Of a stretch of DNA of 64,000 nucleotides, positions 5,730 to 38,190 are shown one piece after another. Origin of the DNA: Eledone cirrhosa (Eukaryota); the NCBI GenBank assembly GCA_964016885.1, contig OZ024742.1:256680001-256744000 (forward strand). Reading direction: 5' to 3'. Within the stretch, counting starts at the first letter, position 1. Every line of letters begins with the position of its first letter. Below the pieces are notes generated by a model. That model did not search any database. It had not been told where the DNA came from and was given only the letters and a program-made list of their open reading frames with translations. A program made the position numbers and the translations under genes.

Positions 5730-6273
5730 TATACCTTCCTGCCAGATTGTTGAACGTATATACTTACCTTATGCATATTAACACCTGAGAAGCCCAATTT
5801 GCATATCGAGTGGGTTAATCGGCCGGGTGCACCGAAAACGATAAACGGAAAAAATGAAACGAAATTTCATTTCCCAATCTTAGTACGGCTGTTACTTAAG
5901 TATATGTATGTACACGTACATACATATATGTATACAGGCGTACAGTAGTATGTATATATATATACATACATGCACACATATATATATATGTATGTTGTGG
6001 ATTCACCGACCATTTATTATAATGCTCGGTGTGTTTGTAAACAAACATCCCGTATTAAGCCGTAGTGTCCAGCAACCATCGTTGCTCGTGTACATATTTA
6101 TATTTAAGTAAAGGCCGTACTAAGAGTGGGAAATTAAATTTCGTTTCATTTTTTCCGTTTATCGTGTTCGGTGCACCCGACCGATTAACCCACTCGATAT
6201 GCAAATTGGGATTCTCAGCTGTTAATATGCATAAGGTAAGTAGATACGTTCAACAACCTGGCAGGAAGGTATA

Positions 6274-6314
6274 CGTTGCTGACGATAGCTAATAAGCTTG
6301 AAACTGGTACAGCG
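6274..6314 (+). ncRNA. Minimal type I hammerhead (R1)
   Basis: cgttg CTGACGA tagctaataagctt GAAA ctgg TA cagcg. Confidence 0.8.
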
Positions 6315-6704
6315 TTCCTTTGTCATGTTGAACAAACGAGCAACGATGGTTGCTGGACACTAAGGCTTAATACGGGATGTTTGTTTACAAACACACTGAG
6401 CATTATAATAAATGTTCGGTGAATCCATACGTACATATATATATATATATATATATGTGTGCATGTATGTATATATATATACATACTACTGAACTTCTGT
6501 ATACATATATGTATGTACGTGTACATACATATATTTAAGTAACAGCCGTACTAAGAGTGGGAAATGAAATTTCGTTTCATTTTTTCCGTTTATCGTTTTC
6601 GGTGCACCCGGCCGATTAACCCACTCGATATGGAAATTGGTCTTCTCAGCTGTTAATATGCATAAGGTAAGTATATACGTTCAACAATCTGGCAGGAAGG
6701 TATA

Positions 6705-6745
6705 CGTTGCTGACGATAGCTAATAAGCTTGAAACTAGTACAGCG
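6705..6745 (+). ncRNA. Minimal type I hammerhead (R1), palindromic stem III ACTAGT
   Basis: cgttg CTGACGA t-agc-taataa-gct-t GAAA ctag TA cagcg; GUA triplet. Confidence 0.88.
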
Positions 6746-7130
6746 TTTCTTTGTCAGTGTTGAACAGACGAGCAACGATGGTTGCTGGAGACTACGGCAT
6801 CATACGGGATGTTTGTTTACAAACACACCGAGCATTATAATAAATCTTCCGTGAATCCATACGTACATATATATATATATATGTGTGCATGTATGTATAT
6901 ATATATACATACTACTGTACGTCTGTATACATATATGTATGTACGTGTACATACTTATACTTAAGTAACAGCCGTACTAAGATTGGGAAATGAAATTTCG
7001 TTTCATTTTTTCCGTTTATCGTTTTCGGTGCACCCGGCCGATTAACCCACTCGATATGCAAATTGGGCTCCTCAGGTGTTAATATGCATAAGGTAAGTAT
7101 ATACGTTCAACAATCTGGCAGGAAGGTATA

Positions 7131-7171
7131 CGTTGCTGACGATAGCTAATAAGCTTGAAACTAGTACAGCG
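7131..7171 (+). ncRNA. Minimal type I hammerhead (R1)
   Basis: Identical to the motif at 6705-6745. Confidence 0.88.
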
Positions 7172-7432
7172 TTCCTTTGTCATGTTGAACAAACGAGCAA
7201 CGATGGTTGCTGGACACTACGGCTTAATACGGGATGTTTGTTTACAAACACACCGAGCATTATAGTAAATGTTCGGTGAATCCATACGTACATATATATA
7301 TGTGTGCATGTATGTATATATATATACATACTACTGTACGTCTGTATACACATATGTATGTTCGTGTACATACTTATATTTAAGTAACAGCCGTACTAAG
7401 AATGGGAAATTAAATTTCGTTTCATTTTTTCC

Positions 7433-7470
<38 letters not shown>

Positions 7471-7476
<6 letters not shown>

Positions 7477-8405
7477 AAAATTTCGTTCCACATCACTGAA
7501 TACAATATATGTAATCTGAGATTTTCGAATATTAAGAATAAAATTTGATTCGTTTGCAATTATGCAAACAAGCCTCAATTGTATAGCCAAGTGAGTAGAA
7601 TGAACACTCCATTCTTGCTTTTGTGTTGGCATGCGAACAGAACTGCAGACACTAATGTTCTGGGTATCACCTTTCATCAGTACAGCTCACTGTTCACCTG
7701 CCAAACTGTTAGAGCTAGTGAACATATATGCTATTTTCAAAAATACACAGTCACTGGTCGGCTTGATATGCATATTAACAGACTGGCTGATCAGTAAGAT
7801 CTGCATATTAGCAGATCCACTGATCAGCCATATTTGCATATCAGCAGACTGGCCAGTCAGTTTCCTGCATACGAGCGATAAATAGGCGGCTTTGCCAAAT
7901 TCAGAATAACAAAGAAAAATGAAGGGTTCGTTCTACTGACATGACAATAACATTGAGGCTTGTTTGCATAATTGCAAACGAAGCGTATGTTATTATTGAT
8001 ATTCGGAAAACACAGATTACATTCATTGTATTCAGCCTTGTTGAGCGAAATATTTTTATTTTATTTTGAATTTGGCAAAGTCGGCCATTTTACGCTCGTA
8101 CACATGAAACTGACTAGCCAGTCTGCTGATATGCAAATCTGGCTGATCAGTGGATCTGCTAATATGAGTATCTAACTGATCAGCCAATCTGCTATTATGC
8201 AAATCAGGCCGATCAGTCACTGTGAATGTTTGAAAATAGCATATGTTTCCACTAACTCTGACAGTTTGGTAGGTGAACATTCAGCTGTACAGAAACATTA
8301 GTGTCTGCAGTTCTGTTCATATGCCAACACAAGAGCAAGAATGAAGTGTTCATTCTACTGACATGGCTATAAAATTGCGGCTTGTTTGCATAATTGCAGA
8401 TTACA
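7471..8405. mobile_element. Retrozyme-like element R2: ~440-nt monomer; minus copy 7471-7919 plus terminally redundant plus copy 7920-8400
   Basis: 7920-7978 recurs at 8341-8398; arms are reverse complements; HHR at 7640-7688(-) lacks one A of GAAA; plus copy has the core deleted (~8290). Confidence 0.8.
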
Positions 8406-8420
8406 TATATTATATATATA

Positions 8421-8463
<43 letters not shown>

Positions 8464-8637: not shown

Positions 8638-8860
8638 AATAATGATTTCCTATATAGGCACAAGGCCAGCAATTTTGGTGGAAGGGAAAGACGATTAAAT
8701 CGACCCCCAGTGCGTGTCAGGTTCTTTATTTTATCGACCCTGTAAGGATGAAAGGCAAAGTAAACCTTGGCGAATATTTGAACTCAGATCATAAAAGGCC
8801 GTAACTTTATGCTGCAAAGCATGGCGTCCGACCCTCTACCAATACTGCCAATCCACCGCC
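8638..8860 (-). mobile_element. tRNA-derived SINE (Octopus-type), full length
   Basis: Minus strand: A-box-like tggcagtattgg, B-box-like gagttcaaat, body ctttcatccttacagggtcgataaaataa, AT-rich tail; five related copies in window. Confidence 0.85.
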
Positions 8861-12566: not shown

Positions 12567-12762
12567 AATAAAGTACCAGTAATGTACTGGGTTATTGCTG
12601 GTCTTGTGCCTAAAGTAGAAACAATTATTTATACAAAGCCATTCTGAGTTCAAATCCCGCCGAGGTTAACGTTGCCTTACATCATTACGGGGTCGATAAA
12701 ATAAAGTACCAGTGATCTATTGGGTAATTGCTGGCCTTGTGCCAATAGTAGAAACAATTATT
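12567..12762 (+). mobile_element. 5'-truncated SINE with a duplicated 3' part
   Basis: gagttcaaatcccgccgagg...ggggtcgataaaataaagtacc; tail ttgctggccttgtgcc..gtagaaacaattatt present twice. Confidence 0.8.
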
Positions 12763-13331
12763 TATTCAAAGTAAACTAACTTATTTTACTAACGGGATTA
12801 AAAAATATAAAAAGGACACTGTCCCGCAGTCCTCTATTTATTATAGTATATATATATATATGTAAGTATATAATGTATCTACATTTGTTATGATATTAAT
12901 ATAGTTTTACATGCTCACTCTTAGATAAACAAGGATTACCGCAAAATACGACGTTGACATAAATATCTTAATGTTAAATTCTATATAAACATATGCTACC
13001 TGGTAACCGTTATTCATGTCTATTCTTGCGCTTAAGAATGACTACGCCATACGCATTCGTAAATAGACGCACTCACGCAAACTTCTCTCTCTCTCTCTCT
13101 CTCAGTATATATATATATACTTACGGTAAACATTGATGCAATTCAAATCAAGCACTCAACATATTTTTTCCACATAGGAATGACAGTATATATTTAGAAT
13201 GAGGATGTGCGAAGTAGTTTCAAATGTTAAAGTCCTTTATTGATAATACTGTGATACATATTTCGATGACGACAGTGGCCACACGATTACGTGTACCCAG
13301 TGCGATGACATTAATAGACAGCTTCTTATAT

Positions 13332-13415
13332 AATTGTTTCTACTTTTGGCAAAAGGCCAGAAATTACCCAGTGTGTTACTGGTACTTTATGTTATCGACA
13401 CCGTAAGGATGAAAT
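13332..13415 (-). mobile_element. SINE 3' fragment
   Basis: Matches the 3' end of the copy at 21645-21830. Confidence 0.7.
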
Positions 13416-14062
13416 GCAAATTTAAACTCGTTCCAGAGGCAATCCAAACAGAAACGACAAGGAAACGAACAAGGCACGTGTTCTTGAATCCCTCGGCCGT
13501 TCCCCTGTATACATATACGTACATACATATATGTATACAGACGTACAGTAGTATGTATATATATACTTACATGCACACACATATATATGTACGTATGGGT
13601 TTACCGAACACTTATTATAGTGTTCGGTTTATTTGTAAACAGACATCCCGAATTAAGCCGTACAGTGTTTATCAAGCATCGTTGCTCTTTTGTTCAACAC
13701 TGGCAAAGGAACGATGCACTAGTTTCAAGCTTATTAGCTATCGTCAGCACCGTAAACCTTCCTGCCAGATGATTGAACTTCTGAAAGTATATACTTTCCT
13801 TATGCATATTAATGGCGGAGCAGCCTAATTAGCATATCGAGTGAGTTAATCAGCCGGGCGCACCGAAAACGATAAATGGAAAAAATGAAAGGAAATTTCA
13901 TTTCTAACTCTTAGTACGGCTGTTATTTAAATATTCCATTTATCGTTTTCGGTGCGCCCGGCCGATTAACTCACTCGATATGCAAATTAGGCGGCTCAGC
14001 CGTTAATATGCATCAGGAAAGTATATACTTTCAGACGTTCAATCATCTGGGAGGAAGGTATA

Positions 14063-14103
14063 CGGTGCTGACGATAGTTAATAAGCTTGAAACTAGTACA
14101 TTG
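14063..14103 (+). ncRNA. Minimal type I hammerhead (R1 subfamily b)
   Basis: cggtg CTGACGA tagttaataagctt GAAA ctag TA cattg. Confidence 0.82.
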
Positions 14104-14504
14104 TTCCTTTGCCAGTGTTGAACAAAATGGCAACGATGGTTGCTAAACACTGTACGGCTTAATTCGGGATGTTTGTTTACAAACAAACCGAACATTATAA
14201 TAAGTGTTCGGTAAATCCATACGTACATATATATATATATATTTGCATGTATGTATATATATATATATACATACTAGTGTACGTCTGTATACATATATGT
14301 ATGTACGTATACATACTTATATTTAAGTAACAGCCGTACTAAGAGTGAGTCAGAAATGAAATTTCGTTTCATTTTATCCATTTATTGTTGTCGGTGCCCC
14401 CGGCCGATTAACTCACTCGATATGCAAATTAGGCTGCTTAGCCGTTAATATGCATAGGGAAGGTATATACTTTCAGACGTTCAATCATCTGGCAGGAAGG
14501 TATA

Positions 14505-14545
14505 CGGTGCTGACGATAGCTAATAAGCTTGAAACAAGTACATCG
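14505..14545 (+). ncRNA. Minimal type I hammerhead (R1 subfamily b)
   Basis: cggtg CTGACGA tagctaataagctt GAAA caag TA catcg. Confidence 0.82.
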
Positions 14546-21091: not shown

Positions 21092-21519
21092 ACAGTACCC
21101 CCTTCCCTCCTAAATATCTCATTTGTACGTTATTCATCTGTGCCCCAGCTGCCTATCATTTTTCACCTCCTCAATATTTATATCTCCCATATCTCTCTCT
21201 CTATCTCGCTCTGTTGTTTTTTCTTTACATGCATTTCTTCATTTTCTTCGTCTTCCTCTCTAACTGTCCTTAGCACTATACACTTTCTTTCTTTTTCTCT
21301 TCGTCTTTCTTTCTAACTGTCCTTAACGTTTTCACTACCAAAACAACTTTTTAAATGGAAGTTGTAAAGTTTAAGGTATGTCAAATTTATTTATAAAACT
21401 GTTTATATATTGTATTTTGTCTGAAGAGGGCATACCATATTTTTTATATGATATCCCTGAAATATATATAATGAAATAAATATGGTTTTATAAATATAGT
21501 TTCCATTTGTTTAATATCG

Positions 21520-21586: not shown

Positions 21587-21644
21587 TATATTTATATATA
21601 TTATATATATATATATATTATATATATATATATTATATATATAT

Positions 21645-21830
21645 AATTGTTTCTACTTTAGGCACAAGGCCAGCAATTACCAGTGCATTACTGGTACTTT
21701 ATTTTATCGACCCCGTAAGGATGAAAGGCAAAGTCAACCTCGGCGGGATTTGAACTCAGATGGTAAAGGGACGTAACTATGCTGGAAAGCATGGCGTCCG
21801 ACCCTCTACCGATACTGCCAATCCACCGCC
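21645..21830 (-). mobile_element. tRNA-derived SINE
   Basis: Same family as 8638-8860. Confidence 0.88.
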
Positions 21831-28652: not shown

Positions 28653-28840
28653 GTGGATTGGCAGTATCGGTAGTGCGCTAGACACCATGACTTGCAGCAT
28701 TGAGTTATAGTCCTTTACGTTCTAAATTCAAATCCTGCCGAGGTTAATTTTGCCTTTCATCCTTATGGGGTCGATAAAATAAAGTACCAGTAATGCATTG
28801 GGATAATTGCTGGCCTTGTGCTAAAAGTAGAAATAGTTAT
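28653..28840 (+). mobile_element. tRNA-derived SINE
   Basis: gtggattggcagtatcggtag...ggggtcgataaaataaagtacc...ggccttgtgc. Confidence 0.85.
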
Positions 28841-29016
28841 ATATATATATTTCGTTTCTGAATTTGTTTAGCAATATTCTTTATCTGAAAGCGTGTGTTG
28901 AAACCGATATTGTTATACTTTGGGAGGTTCATGTTGCCAATAAGAAACACACGCACCAGTTGCTTTCACTCCAATTTATTATAAATTCTTAAATTCATAA
29001 ATTTAATTTATAAATA

Positions 29017-35958: not shown

Positions 35959-36009
<51 letters not shown>

Positions 36010-36350
36010 CGTTATGTTTGACGACATTGGATAGCAACAGGCCACCTTACCTATTAGATATGGTGGCATTGGCCTCCGGCACCCGATCTCGCTGGTTTTG
36101 CCAGCGTTTCTTTCGTCGGTAAATACATTCCACGTAATCGTCAACAAGTTTCACCTAAAGCACAATGGAACCCACTGTGATCGAGGAACGTGAGGCTGCC
36201 TGCCAGACGTGAAACTGGCTTGGGCTTAGCCCAGTAGACGTCCCTCCTCCTCCCCCTGCTGACGTCAAGTGCTCCCAGATTATTTGGGATGCCCTTCAAA
36301 TGCAACCTCGCTTCAGACAGGGTAGCGTGCTAGCTCACCCAGCACCGCCC
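36010..36350 (+). mobile_element. CRE-clade LINE RT C-terminal fragment
   Basis: Hand translation QQATLPIRYGGIGLRHPISLVLPAFLSSV. Confidence 0.65.
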
Positions 36351-36364
36351 TGTATGTTTTCGCG

Positions 36365-37050
36365 CGGATAAATGGCCGGCTTTGTCACATTCAAATAGAA
36401 AAAAAAATTCCGCTCTACATGGCTGATTACAATAAATGTAATCTGAGATTTTCGAATATAAATAACAACTTTCGATTCGTTTGCAATTATACAGACAAGC
36501 CTATTTTATTTTTTATAGCTATGTCAGTAGAATAAACCCTTCATACTTGCTCTTCTGTTGGCATGTAAACAGAACTACAGACCCTAATGTGTCTGGGTAT
36601 CACCCTTCATCAGTACAGCTCACTGTTCACCTGCCAACTTTGCCGGCCCTTTATCGCTCGTATGCAGGAAACTGACTGGCCAGTCTGCTGATATGCAAAT
36701 CTGGCTGAGCAGTGGATCTACTAATATGCAGATCTGACTGATCAGCCAGTCTACTAATATGCATATCAGGCCGATCAGTCACTGTATAGTTTAGAATATA
36801 GCATATATTTTTACTAGCTCTGACAGTTGGCAGGTGAAGAGTGAACTGTACTGATGAAGGGTGATACCCAGAAACATTAGTGTCTGCAGTTCTGTTTACA
36901 TGCCAACACAAGAGCAAGAATGAAAGGTTCATTCTACTGACATGGCTATACAAATGAGGCTTGTTTGTATAATTGCAAACGAATCGAATCTTATTATTAA
37001 TATTTATTATATTTATTATATTCAGCCATGTTGAGTGAATTTTCTTTTAA
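36365..37050. mobile_element. Second R2 insertion (minus arm 36365-36640, plus arm 36641-37050)
   Basis: Homologous to 7471-8405 but starting at a different point of the monomer. Confidence 0.82.
36843..36892 (+). ncRNA. Canonical type I hammerhead (R2)
   Basis: gaactgta CTGATGA a-gggt-gat-accc-a GAAA ca-ttag-tg TC tgcagttc; 8-bp stem I, GUC triplet. Confidence 0.92.
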
Positions 37051-38190
37051 TATATATATATAATGATATTATAAAAGAAGCATTGCATGTTGATATAGGG
37101 TTCGATTTCCGCTAACGAAATTTGATCACTACTATATATTTATATATATCGGTGTGAGTGTGTGTATGTTCATCTGCGTGTTAGTGTTTGTGTGAGTTTG
37201 TGTATATGAGTGTGTAAACACAGAGTTGACTCCTGTATTTTATCACCAAAATGTCAAACCGTAGAAAAGAATTAACCCTAGGCTATAGCAGGTGAGAACA
37301 TATGCGGAACCTGCCTCCACACACGCCTGAACATGTGGTTGTGTAGCGAACACTTTACCCAAAAACCATGTTTTGTTGTATAGATAATATAATTAATACA
37401 TGTATTACTGTTATTATTTCCTGCTATTCTTAATACCTGCCGTTTTATTGCCTCCAAGAAATATGTTTTCTCTAAGTATTTTTGTTCTTTGGTGTTGATT
37501 GTGTCACATCTCTCAGTAACACAGATAAACATGCTTTAATTGGAAATGTTAACAATACTGGAAACACGTTTCTTATATTCTTAGACTGTACTCTTATGAT
37601 AAGATGTTAAATTTTGATATTTTGTAAGCCTCAAGTCATTTGTTTATAATCTTTGTTTTATTAGATCCATTTTTCCTTTCACATTTTTTCACGTGATTGA
37701 CGTTATATAACTGAAGCAATATATTAACTAATTTTTGTTCAGTGCTCTTTTTACATTTTGAACTTAATTCTCAACTAATATGTTCAATTTTACAGCATGA
37801 AGTATATTTCTGAATCACTTCAACTGCTTTCAACAATTTTATTTGACATCTGCTGCATCTCCTTATGTTTGTGTGTCTAGGTGTGTGTGAAATGTTTAAT
37901 AACATTTCAGTTATTACAACTAATTATCTCACATGCAATTCTGTTTGACCTACCATTCCATTTCATTCCATTACTTTCCATAACATTGCAATCAACAGGT
38001 GTATCATTTATGAACAAAATTTATATATCAGCTGAAACTAGAGATGGAAGATGAGATGTGAGTGAGACATATTTGGCAGTTAAATAACAGTATATATGTG
38101 TATGTATGTATGTATGTATGTATGTATGTATGTATGTATGTATGTATGTATGTATGTATGTATGTATGTATGTATATATGTATGTATGTA

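Follow-up and report, generated by a model that had tools for sequence, protein, structure and literature searches.

Introduction

Hammerhead ribozymes (HHRs) of animals have been described from two related kinds of mobile element. Animal retrozymes are non-coding, low-GC repeats of 150-450 bp that contain a type I HHR and are found alongside Penelope-like elements (PLEs), according to Cervera & de la Pena 2020 (PMC7229834) and a preprint by Li, Clavereau & Pollet 2026 (10.64898/2026.07.22.740005), both cited throughout for their sections on retrozymes. Animal retrozymes of a kind comparable with the one reported here are abundant circular RNAs (circRNAs) in the former account (PMC7229834), and the preprint has recently proposed, from co-occurrence and sequence similarity, that animal retrozymes are non-autonomous passengers of PLEs (10.64898/2026.07.22.740005). 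PLE insertions, in the portions of Craig et al. 2021 considered here and below (PMC8557442), show as hallmarks partial tandems and, at the 5' end, a further copy that is inverted and 5'-truncated; 5' truncation is frequent, one end has a tail of 30-40 bp, and insertion is biased towards microsatellites, (TA)n in particular. With a purified PLE of the anole (Frangieh et al. 2024, PMC11167929), both DNA strands were cut and extended, and reverse transcription started from two neighbouring internal positions, which define the limits of the tail; HHR mutants inserted normally in vitro, the HHR cut only with protein, and RNA-seq reads ending at the HHR cut were absent.

Here we analyse a stretch of 64,000 nucleotides (nt) from the 3.0-Gb genome of Eledone cirrhosa (C3:256680001-256744000, hereafter the window), in which positions 36368-37062 probably represent one composite insertion of a ~438-nt non-coding hammerhead retrozyme, likely written by a PLE. 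The retrozyme and its relatives, which we call the R2 family, are best filed, on their sequence features, in the known class of animal retrozymes without long terminal repeats (LTRs), or non-autonomous PLEs.

Structure of the two loci

Both R2 loci of the window consist of a full unit placed head-to-head with a 5'-truncated copy that crosses a T-rich junction (...gagcgaaattttcttttttatttgaatttggcaaagcc...) into the next unit. Their parts are given below; U coordinates refer to a reference copy (L014:1694-2105), in which CUGAUGA begins at U211 and the predicted cut follows U244.

36368..36407, minus strand: outer end of the left arm, with the T-rich head-to-tail junction and ~13 nt of the next unit, as reverse complement, to ATTTAT
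36399..36640, minus strand: left arm, an inverted 5'-truncated unit (~U184-407), 83% identical to the unit of the right arm
36572..36621, minus strand: degenerate hammerhead of the left arm, with GAC for GAA at 12-14 and a mismatch in helix III; missed by the motif scan
36642..37062, plus strand: right arm, one full unit of 421 nt, ending at the distal 3' terminus (site a)
36684..36782, plus strand: three 33-nt tandem sub-repeats rich in CTGATCAG palindromes; as RNA, predicted to fold into a long hairpin
36843..36892, plus strand: type I hammerhead motif with full core and A.A at 10.1/11.1 (from sequence, scan, folds and genome counts)
36884..36885, plus strand: predicted self-cleavage site, after C17 = C36884 (from sequence only)
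37049..37072, no strand: TA-rich microsatellite adjoining the 3' end of the right arm
7436-7472: (TA)n adjoining the site-a 3' end of the 7456-7890 copy
7456..7890, minus strand: second locus, left arm, a full unit; hammerhead dead, one A of GAAA lost
7891-7918: T-rich junction beside the 7456-7890 copy
7915..8443, plus strand: second locus, right arm, a partial tandem of unit 275-414, junction (8065-8081) and unit 3-380

Viewed as an inverted repeat, the locus at 36368-37062 has arms of 245 nt around a centre of 185 nt. Its right-arm unit is shortened by an 11-nt deletion near 37003, most family copies being ~435 nt long. The two loci read on opposite strands: 36354-36544 matches 8105-7919 and 36642-37062 matches 7890-7456, while a 97-nt piece with a dead hammerhead at the 36-kb locus corresponds to 28 nt at the 7-8-kb locus. 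The first-pass annotation had held that the monomer is permuted between the loci. Its underlying observation is correct, in that the minus arm (36368-36640) is continuous across both ends of the other copy (7456-7918), from the 3' part through the T-rich junction to the start of the next unit. The loci are colinear on opposite strands, each with its full unit head-to-head with a 5'-truncated partial tandem, an architecture that is standard for insertions of the family. The apparent permutation is the head-to-tail junction of the partial tandem inside a composite insertion, and the monomers are not differently permuted. The boundaries also move: the composite occupies 36368-37062, followed by TA-rich DNA up to ~37072, and the other locus is ~7436-8460 rather than 7471-7919.

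In the second locus, the right arm has lost the hammerhead core from its 8082-8443 copy; its 3' end is the proximal terminus (site b, ...cagattacat), beside (TA)n at ~8404-8460, so that the arms of the 7436-8460 locus end at a and b. At 36368-37062 the right arm ends at site a and the left arm is exceptional: it continues beyond site a as far as U13 in the following unit, where it stops after ...ccatttat, a TTTAT motif. Only one of the four R2 hammerhead positions of the window is intact (36843-36892), the other three being dead.

The left edge of the composite coincides exactly with the point at which an older, unrelated repeat at 36002-36367 (1716 first-look candidates, 79-85% identity) breaks off, and the continuation that other copies of this repeat possess was not found within the window. 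This truncation would point to a target deletion at insertion or to a later rearrangement.

The R2 family and its insertion pattern

A genome search with the 36-kb locus listed at least 151 matches from 3953 first-look candidates. Exact matches in the genome numbered 760 for the 44-nt HHR core, 1691 for a 26-mer at unit positions 260-285 and 2555 for a 26-mer at unit positions 376-401 (the 3' marker), with none for the reversed control of each. The head-to-tail period is 438-441 nt and the GC content of the unit 39.6%; the only long frame of the unit has no Pfam match, leaving it without an open reading frame (ORF). These properties are those of a retrozyme, which has a type I HHR in a low-GC, non-coding unit measuring a few hundred bp and no LTR, primer-binding site or polypurine tract, the last two not having been searched for in R2. 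Across 25 aligned full copies, agreement with the column majority is 83-99% per 10-nt block. Judged from its sequences, the family is young, with thousands of copies that are a few percent diverged.

To describe insertion structure, sample 1 took 100 copies with the U260-285 marker and sample 2 took 90 copies with the U376-401 marker, both ordered by position on contig C1; the second marker demands site-a-type copies. The 5' sides of these copies fall as follows.

Reaching the unit start: 31/100 in sample 1, 14/90 in sample 2
Reaching the unit start and continuing in tandem: 13 in sample 1, 7 in sample 2
Reaching the unit start, inverted partner: 11 in sample 1, 4 in sample 2
Reaching the unit start, unrelated flank: 7 in sample 1, 3 in sample 2
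5'-truncated: 69/100 in sample 1, 76/90 in sample 2
5'-truncated, inverted partner: 49 in sample 1, 40 in sample 2
5'-truncated, unrelated flank: 20 in sample 1, 36 in sample 2
Head-to-head in total: 60/100 in sample 1, 44/90 in sample 2

Tandem (head-to-tail) junctions occur in 13/100 copies of sample 1 and ~21/90 of sample 2. Arrays are short; among the first 100 places listed, HHR cores spaced by 437-438 nt form three pairs. Inner breakpoints and arm lengths differ between loci.

The 3' ends, by comparison, are concentrated at two points. In sample 1, 36/100 copies end at site a (...gagcgaaattttctttt[t]at) and 45/100 at site b (...cagattacatttat), which lies ~35 nt upstream of site a; the other 19/100 end elsewhere, several of them broken by a SINE-like insertion (SINE, short interspersed nuclear element). 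Both sites sit at a TTTAT motif (...acatttat and ...ttttctttttat). A microsatellite follows 23/36 site-a and 39/45 site-b ends of sample 1 and is nearly always (TA)n, which follows 60/81 site-a or site-b ends in sample 1 and is found in 59/90 copies of sample 2; a few ends bear (CA)n, (CT)n or (TG)n instead.

The two termini are also distributed between the arms in a regular manner. We examined 66 head-to-head pairs in loci taken with 1.5 kb of flanking DNA. In 35 of them each outer end lay at site a or b, and these comprised 32 a/b pairs, 2 a/a and 1 b/b (binomial against 0.5, ~2e-7). The remaining 31 pairs, with at least one end elsewhere, were 15 a/other, 10 b/other and 6 other/other.

In its sequence the R2 family carries all four features of the PLE footprint: partial tandems, copies that are 5'-truncated and inverted, a tail restricted to one end, and a bias towards microsatellite or AT-rich DNA. 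PLEs themselves are plentiful in this genome. A search for the GIY-YIG domain gave 10597 first-look candidates, and all 150 of the 150 scored passed the Pfam cut-off; at three loci (L044, 938 amino acids; L046; L048) a long frame encodes a reverse transcriptase (RT) and, C-terminal to it, a GIY-YIG domain. The first of these loci, L044, repeats as a partial tandem every 4979 nt, and its terminal copy ends ...ctcactttctaa and then (TA)n (ending ...ctttctaa(TA)n). The repeat search on PLE loci gave mostly microsatellite noise, and the direct repeats of L044 alone were used. Among 40 further PLE 3' regions, 12 share a terminal sequence (...ctctttctccctgttttca) directly before (TA)n, and at least three other families end likewise.

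The hammerhead motif and its predicted folds

The motif at 36843-36892 (plus strand) reads GAACUGUA-CUGAUGA-A-GGGU-GAU-ACCC-A-GAA-ACA-UUAG-UGU-C, followed beyond the predicted cut by UGCAGUUC. Helix I has 8 bp including one G.U and grows, across two bulges, to ~25 pairs; helix II is GGGU/ACCC (4 bp); helix III is ACA/UGU (3 bp) with a UUAG loop, and GUC is present. The layout is that of type I, with three helices and helix I open, both the 5' and the 3' end lying in it. The invariant core (C3 U4 G5 A6 N7 G8 A9, G12 A13 A14, A15.1-U16.1 and H17) is complete at 36851-36884. Our own scanner, which combines a regular expression with a helix check, recovered the motif among 11 matches in the window, the others belonging to other hammerhead families, and found none in each of 20 shuffles. 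Every element that had been read here in the first pass (the 8-bp stem I, gggt/accc, aca/tgt and GUC) is thus present.

The description of this hammerhead as canonical is more doubtful. The usual, though not absolute, G10.1-C11.1 pair is absent, A36858 facing A36870 as an A.A mismatch, and the Rfam hammerhead models gave no match at the gathering score or at E<=10 to either an 801-nt or a 106-nt query. One of these models, RF00163, does work in the E. cirrhosa genome, where 19/74 scored candidates, all of them other hammerheads, lay above the cut-off. A literature search with the HHR core sequence gave no match. The hammerhead motif at 36843-36892 is real, yet not fully canonical.

At the level of the family, the core and helices are intact in 41/60 copies sampled through a neighbouring marker, the exact 44-mer is present in 17/60, and the majority sequence keeps every invariant core position. 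The hammerhead blocks show 97-99% agreement in the 25 full copies, which is not above the neighbouring blocks. This is what would be expected of young neutral copies, and we therefore see no signal of selection in it.

Predicted folds do not favour cutting by a single molecule. The unconstrained fold of 36822-36912 has -33.8 kcal/mol, with ACUGAUG pairing with CAUUAGU so that the core is sequestered, and the hammerhead-constrained fold has -27.6 kcal/mol, 6.2 kcal/mol weaker. The helix III hairpin alone, at 0.0 kcal/mol, does not fold. Two copies of ACAUUAGUGU, by contrast, are predicted to form a 10-bp intermolecular duplex of -8.8 kcal/mol, the stem and loop of helix III being self-complementary. 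Monomeric self-cleavage is doubtful because of the A.A mismatch, the missing Rfam match, the favoured inactive fold and the instability of helix III on its own; cutting after C36884 is predicted, probably better by paired motifs than by one. The proposal that this copy is the best candidate for monomeric self-cleavage holds in one respect, since it has the sole intact core among the four R2 positions of the window, and is doubtful in the other, monomer cutting not being favoured by the predicted folds.

The RNA template

Head-to-tail junctions would plausibly need a template longer than one unit, that is, a multimeric or circular RNA. The earlier suggestion of such an intermediate is reasonable, and it rests on the tandem junctions counted above instead of on permutation. 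For a 438-nt circle of the unit the predicted folding energy is -148.1 kcal/mol (z = -12.6 relative to 30 mononucleotide shuffles), and 69% of its bases would be paired. In sample 1, 18/100 copies are about one full period long, ending at most ~45 nt upstream of the unit start, and many unit-length copies stop in the T-tract where copies end, one period upstream of the 3' end. Such copies would result from one turn on a circle, or from a favoured joining site.

The 5' ends of truncated copies were compared around the predicted cut. Ends at U229-244, before the cut, number 7 in each sample; those at U245-260, after it, number 27 in sample 1 and 9 in sample 2; a further 2 at U261-276 come from sample 2 only, the interval not being covered by sample 1. 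The 16 nt after the cut thus hold 2.6-fold more 5' ends than the 16 nt before it (36 vs 14). Only a handful of copies begin within 1-2 nt of the cut, and several of these are blurred by microhomology. An exact start at the predicted cut was rejected as a description of these copies, the pile-up being broad and without a peak. The distribution fits a process in which cDNA synthesis runs off the end of self-cleaved RNA and the ends are then joined raggedly.

Mechanistic scenarios

The origin that we favour, a composite insertion probably written by a PLE, can be laid out as follows. The template would be an RNA longer than the unit, either a multimeric transcript or a circle formed by hammerhead cutting and ligation. 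A PLE enzyme would likely cleave AT-rich microsatellite DNA on both strands, and reverse transcription would begin from each 3'-OH, at one or other of two internal UUUAU sites. Both cDNAs would then extend inward and join by microhomology, producing the inverted repeat whose halves the first-pass annotation had called arms.

A number of observations weigh against parts of this origin. Besides the lack of an Rfam match, the inactive lowest-energy fold of the hammerhead region and the conservation of the hammerhead at no more than the level of its neighbours, the pile-up of 5' ends is spread over U242-260 without a sharp peak, with joints often showing 3-4 nt of microhomology; some ends lie at U230-242, upstream of the cut, where cleaved RNA could not produce them, and RT pausing or stalling in a stable hairpin would also fit the distribution. 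The U13-type arm end occurs in 1/66 head-to-head pairs, namely the copy in the window itself, and may stem from a later deletion; among 19 tandem-junction copies, none stops within 59 nt with a tail beyond the T-tract like that of the left arm in the window. A BLAST comparison of the unit with 58 PLE loci (18 + 40), a small share of the more than 10,000 candidates, showed no similarity except two neighbouring R2 insertions, and no autonomous partner of the unit was found among these 58. No consistent target-site duplication was seen in the 11 solo or tandem copies inspected. It should be noted, too, that the samples cover the first part of one chromosome and the best-scoring matches, and are not a full census.

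Three other scenarios were weighed against the same data.

1. The hammerhead is an idle passenger derived from a PLE pseudo-LTR. The motif would not cut by itself, no circles would form, and linear read-through multimers would serve as templates. We consider this possible though on balance unlikely. It agrees with the behaviour of the anole PLE, whose HHR is dispensable for insertion in vitro and needs protein to cut (PMC11167929), and with much that was found here: a predicted fold that hides the core, the A.A pair at 10.1/11.1 with no Rfam match, an HHR without extra conservation, and 5' ends near the cut that are spread instead of sharp. It accounts less well for the retention of the invariant core in the majority sequence and in 41/60 copies, for the 2.6-fold excess of 5' ends after the cut, and for the over-representation of unit-length copies (18/100), which a circle explains simply; moreover, comparable animal retrozymes are abundant as circRNAs (PMC7229834). 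A further reading would treat the family as a fossil record of retrozyme copying: when a microsatellite breaks, a pair of PLE enzymes would prime from its two ends, using two UUUAU motifs 35 nt apart, one per end, with circular and self-cleaved linear RNAs both serving as templates in vivo; in that reading the two kinds of template are deduced from the unit-length excess and from the copies starting just after the cut. We put it forward tentatively, as about as unlikely as the idle hammerhead; if true, it would mean that the ribozyme is active in the animal. Under the favoured origin, the predicted hammerhead cutting may or may not be needed for mobility.

2. The family is a SINE-like retroposon mobilised by a long interspersed nuclear element (LINE). 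Such an element would have a (TA)n tail, its arms would arise by L1-style twin priming, and its partial tandems would be 5'-truncated copies of transcripts from a tandem master. A fixed 3' end at a simple repeat with variable 5' truncation is in keeping with this, as are a ~190-nt SINE-like family of the same genome that likewise ends in (TA)n and a SINE sub-family that bears the last ~60 nt of the unit as its tail (12/90 copies). Twin priming yields an inverted segment that begins at an internal site of the RNA and lacks the 3' end. In R2 each arm finishes at a 3' terminus of the element itself, beside a microsatellite; the termini are used one per arm in 32/35 pairs, and inverted partners accompany 44-60% of copies; the PLEs of the genome, furthermore, end in (TA)n too. 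Taken together, these make the scenario improbable.

3. The locus is a foldback element or miniature inverted-repeat transposable element (MITE). The inverted repeat with its 245-nt arms and 185-nt centre invites a reading of the arms as terminal inverted repeats of a DNA transposon, but this is very hard to credit given inner breakpoints that vary by locus, many solo or tandem copies with no inverted partner, arms that lie 5'-to-5' with the 3' ends of the units outward beside microsatellites, and the absence of fixed termini or of a consistent duplication in the 11 solo or tandem copies.

The type of element is already known, and similar families exist in the same genome. The proposal that animal retrozymes travel with PLEs has been based on co-occurrence and similarity, and the R2 family adds independent evidence in the form of an insertion footprint, with head-to-head arms, microsatellite targets and two start sites, each used by one arm. 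Its size and young age allow the family to be counted, and a countable PLE-type footprint including the one-site-per-arm rule is its most useful content. It also offers a concrete substrate, a 438-nt RNA with a (TA)n target, for studying PLE reverse transcription and the role of hammerhead cutting and circles.

Neighbouring repeats and other hammerheads

Several further hammerhead families are present in and around the window. A second family forms a ~430-nt tandem repeat at 6100-7440, with motifs at 6273-6315, 6704-6746 and 7130-7172, and recurs at 14062-14104 and 14505-14545; its motif is minimal (CUGACGA ... GAA ACUAGU A), helix III being a 6-nt palindrome, and the array at 6100-7440 extends as far as the start of the (TA)n at the 7456 R2 copy. 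A third hammerhead-like motif (CUGAUGA UUUCUAAUGAAU GAA ACAG...CUGU A) lies at 58946-58996 (minus strand) and also near two PLE ORF loci (L043 9401-9451, minus; L048 979-1029, plus). Hammerhead-like motifs with CUGAAGA and a UAUAUAUA helix III occur at 21413-21478 (plus), 49081-49135 (plus) and 48792-48846 (minus); the pair at 48.8/49.1 kb is inverted, and the same motif stands beside a PLE ORF (L046 1044-1098). Finally, a Schistosoma-like hammerhead (CUGAUGAGUCCUAAAUAGGACGAAAC AUU GUC), which scores 37.8 bits with RF00163 and is unrelated to the R2 family, was found at six places (L269-L274) on C3, C4, C10, C12, C22 and C28; their surroundings of ~100 nt are nearly identical, and it is therefore another young family.

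The abundant ~190-nt SINE-like family with its (TA)n end is represented at 21637-21826 (minus), 28654-28846 (plus), 12594-12766, 8655-8856 and 13330-13430. It contains GAGTTCAAATCCCGC, which we take to be B-box-like; ARAGORN called no tRNA in the window, this family included. The sub-family with the R2 tail, seen among copies with the 3' marker, is sometimes followed by a whole R2 unit, and the arrangement suggests that the SINE-like family and R2 may share one reverse transcriptase. In 4/100 sampled R2 copies (L107, L129, L148, L172) a SINE-like element sits inside the ttattattaatatt stretch of the unit (U352-369), which may be a preferred AT-rich target.

The window at ~38000-64000 has long stretches open in several frames on both strands, with no Pfam match, and none was obtained for the 13 long stop-to-stop frames of the window. 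Hundreds of weak matches to microRNA models (mir-297 and the like) fall in the same region and elsewhere in the window, and the whole-window Rfam E-value scan was dominated by such microsatellite look-alikes of microRNA families. The region ~38000-64000 is TG/TA-type simple sequence, not genes.

Comparison with known systems

The R2 family resembles the anole PLE (Frangieh et al. 2024, PMC11167929) in having a hammerhead motif and two adjacent RT start sites. The strands of the anole element share start sites in vitro (PMC11167929), whereas the two arms of R2 insertions nearly always differ. As in PLEs generally, in the portions of Craig et al. 2021 considered here (PMC8557442), R2 insertions include partial tandems and have at the 5' end a copy that is 5'-truncated and inverted; one end has an extension of ~35 nt, and the insertions lie in microsatellite or AT-rich DNA. 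Unlike PLEs, the R2 unit has no ORF, and it shares no sequence similarity with the 58 PLE loci sampled. Schistosome SM-alpha and Sj-alpha are dispersed, short, SINE-like retroposons with a type I hammerhead; R2 is likewise a dispersed short retroposon with such a hammerhead, and differs from them in lacking a tRNA-like head, none having been called by ARAGORN in the window.

With regard to the ribozyme itself, R2 shares with the active axolotl motif HHR_Amex2 a mismatch at the same helix II base, A.A in R2 and U.U in HHR_Amex2 (PMC7229834). Its weak helix III, with ACAUUAGUGU self-complementary between molecules, recalls the dimer-acting minimal hammerheads of amphibian satellite-2 and of PLEs (PMC7229834), which nevertheless have 1 pair in helix III where R2 has 3. 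A helix III of three pairs is described as the invertebrate style, often cutting as a monomer (PMC7229834). Because helix III is weak and yet has 3 pairs, monomer or dimer behaviour of the R2 hammerhead is not predictable from sequence.

The closest relatives remain the animal non-LTR retrozymes (Cervera & de la Pena 2020, PMC7229834; Li, Clavereau & Pollet 2026, 10.64898/2026.07.22.740005). A head-to-head footprint with two termini, like that of R2, finds no description in the sections on retrozymes of these two sources, and R2 copies are mostly dispersed single or partial-dimer insertions, unlike the long arrays reported there; R2 is also known here from DNA, with cleavage and circularity predicted. 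In common with those retrozymes, R2 has a type I hammerhead in a short, non-coding, low-GC repeat, copies that stand head-to-tail and number in the thousands, a predicted circle that is highly self-paired, and PLEs in the same genome.

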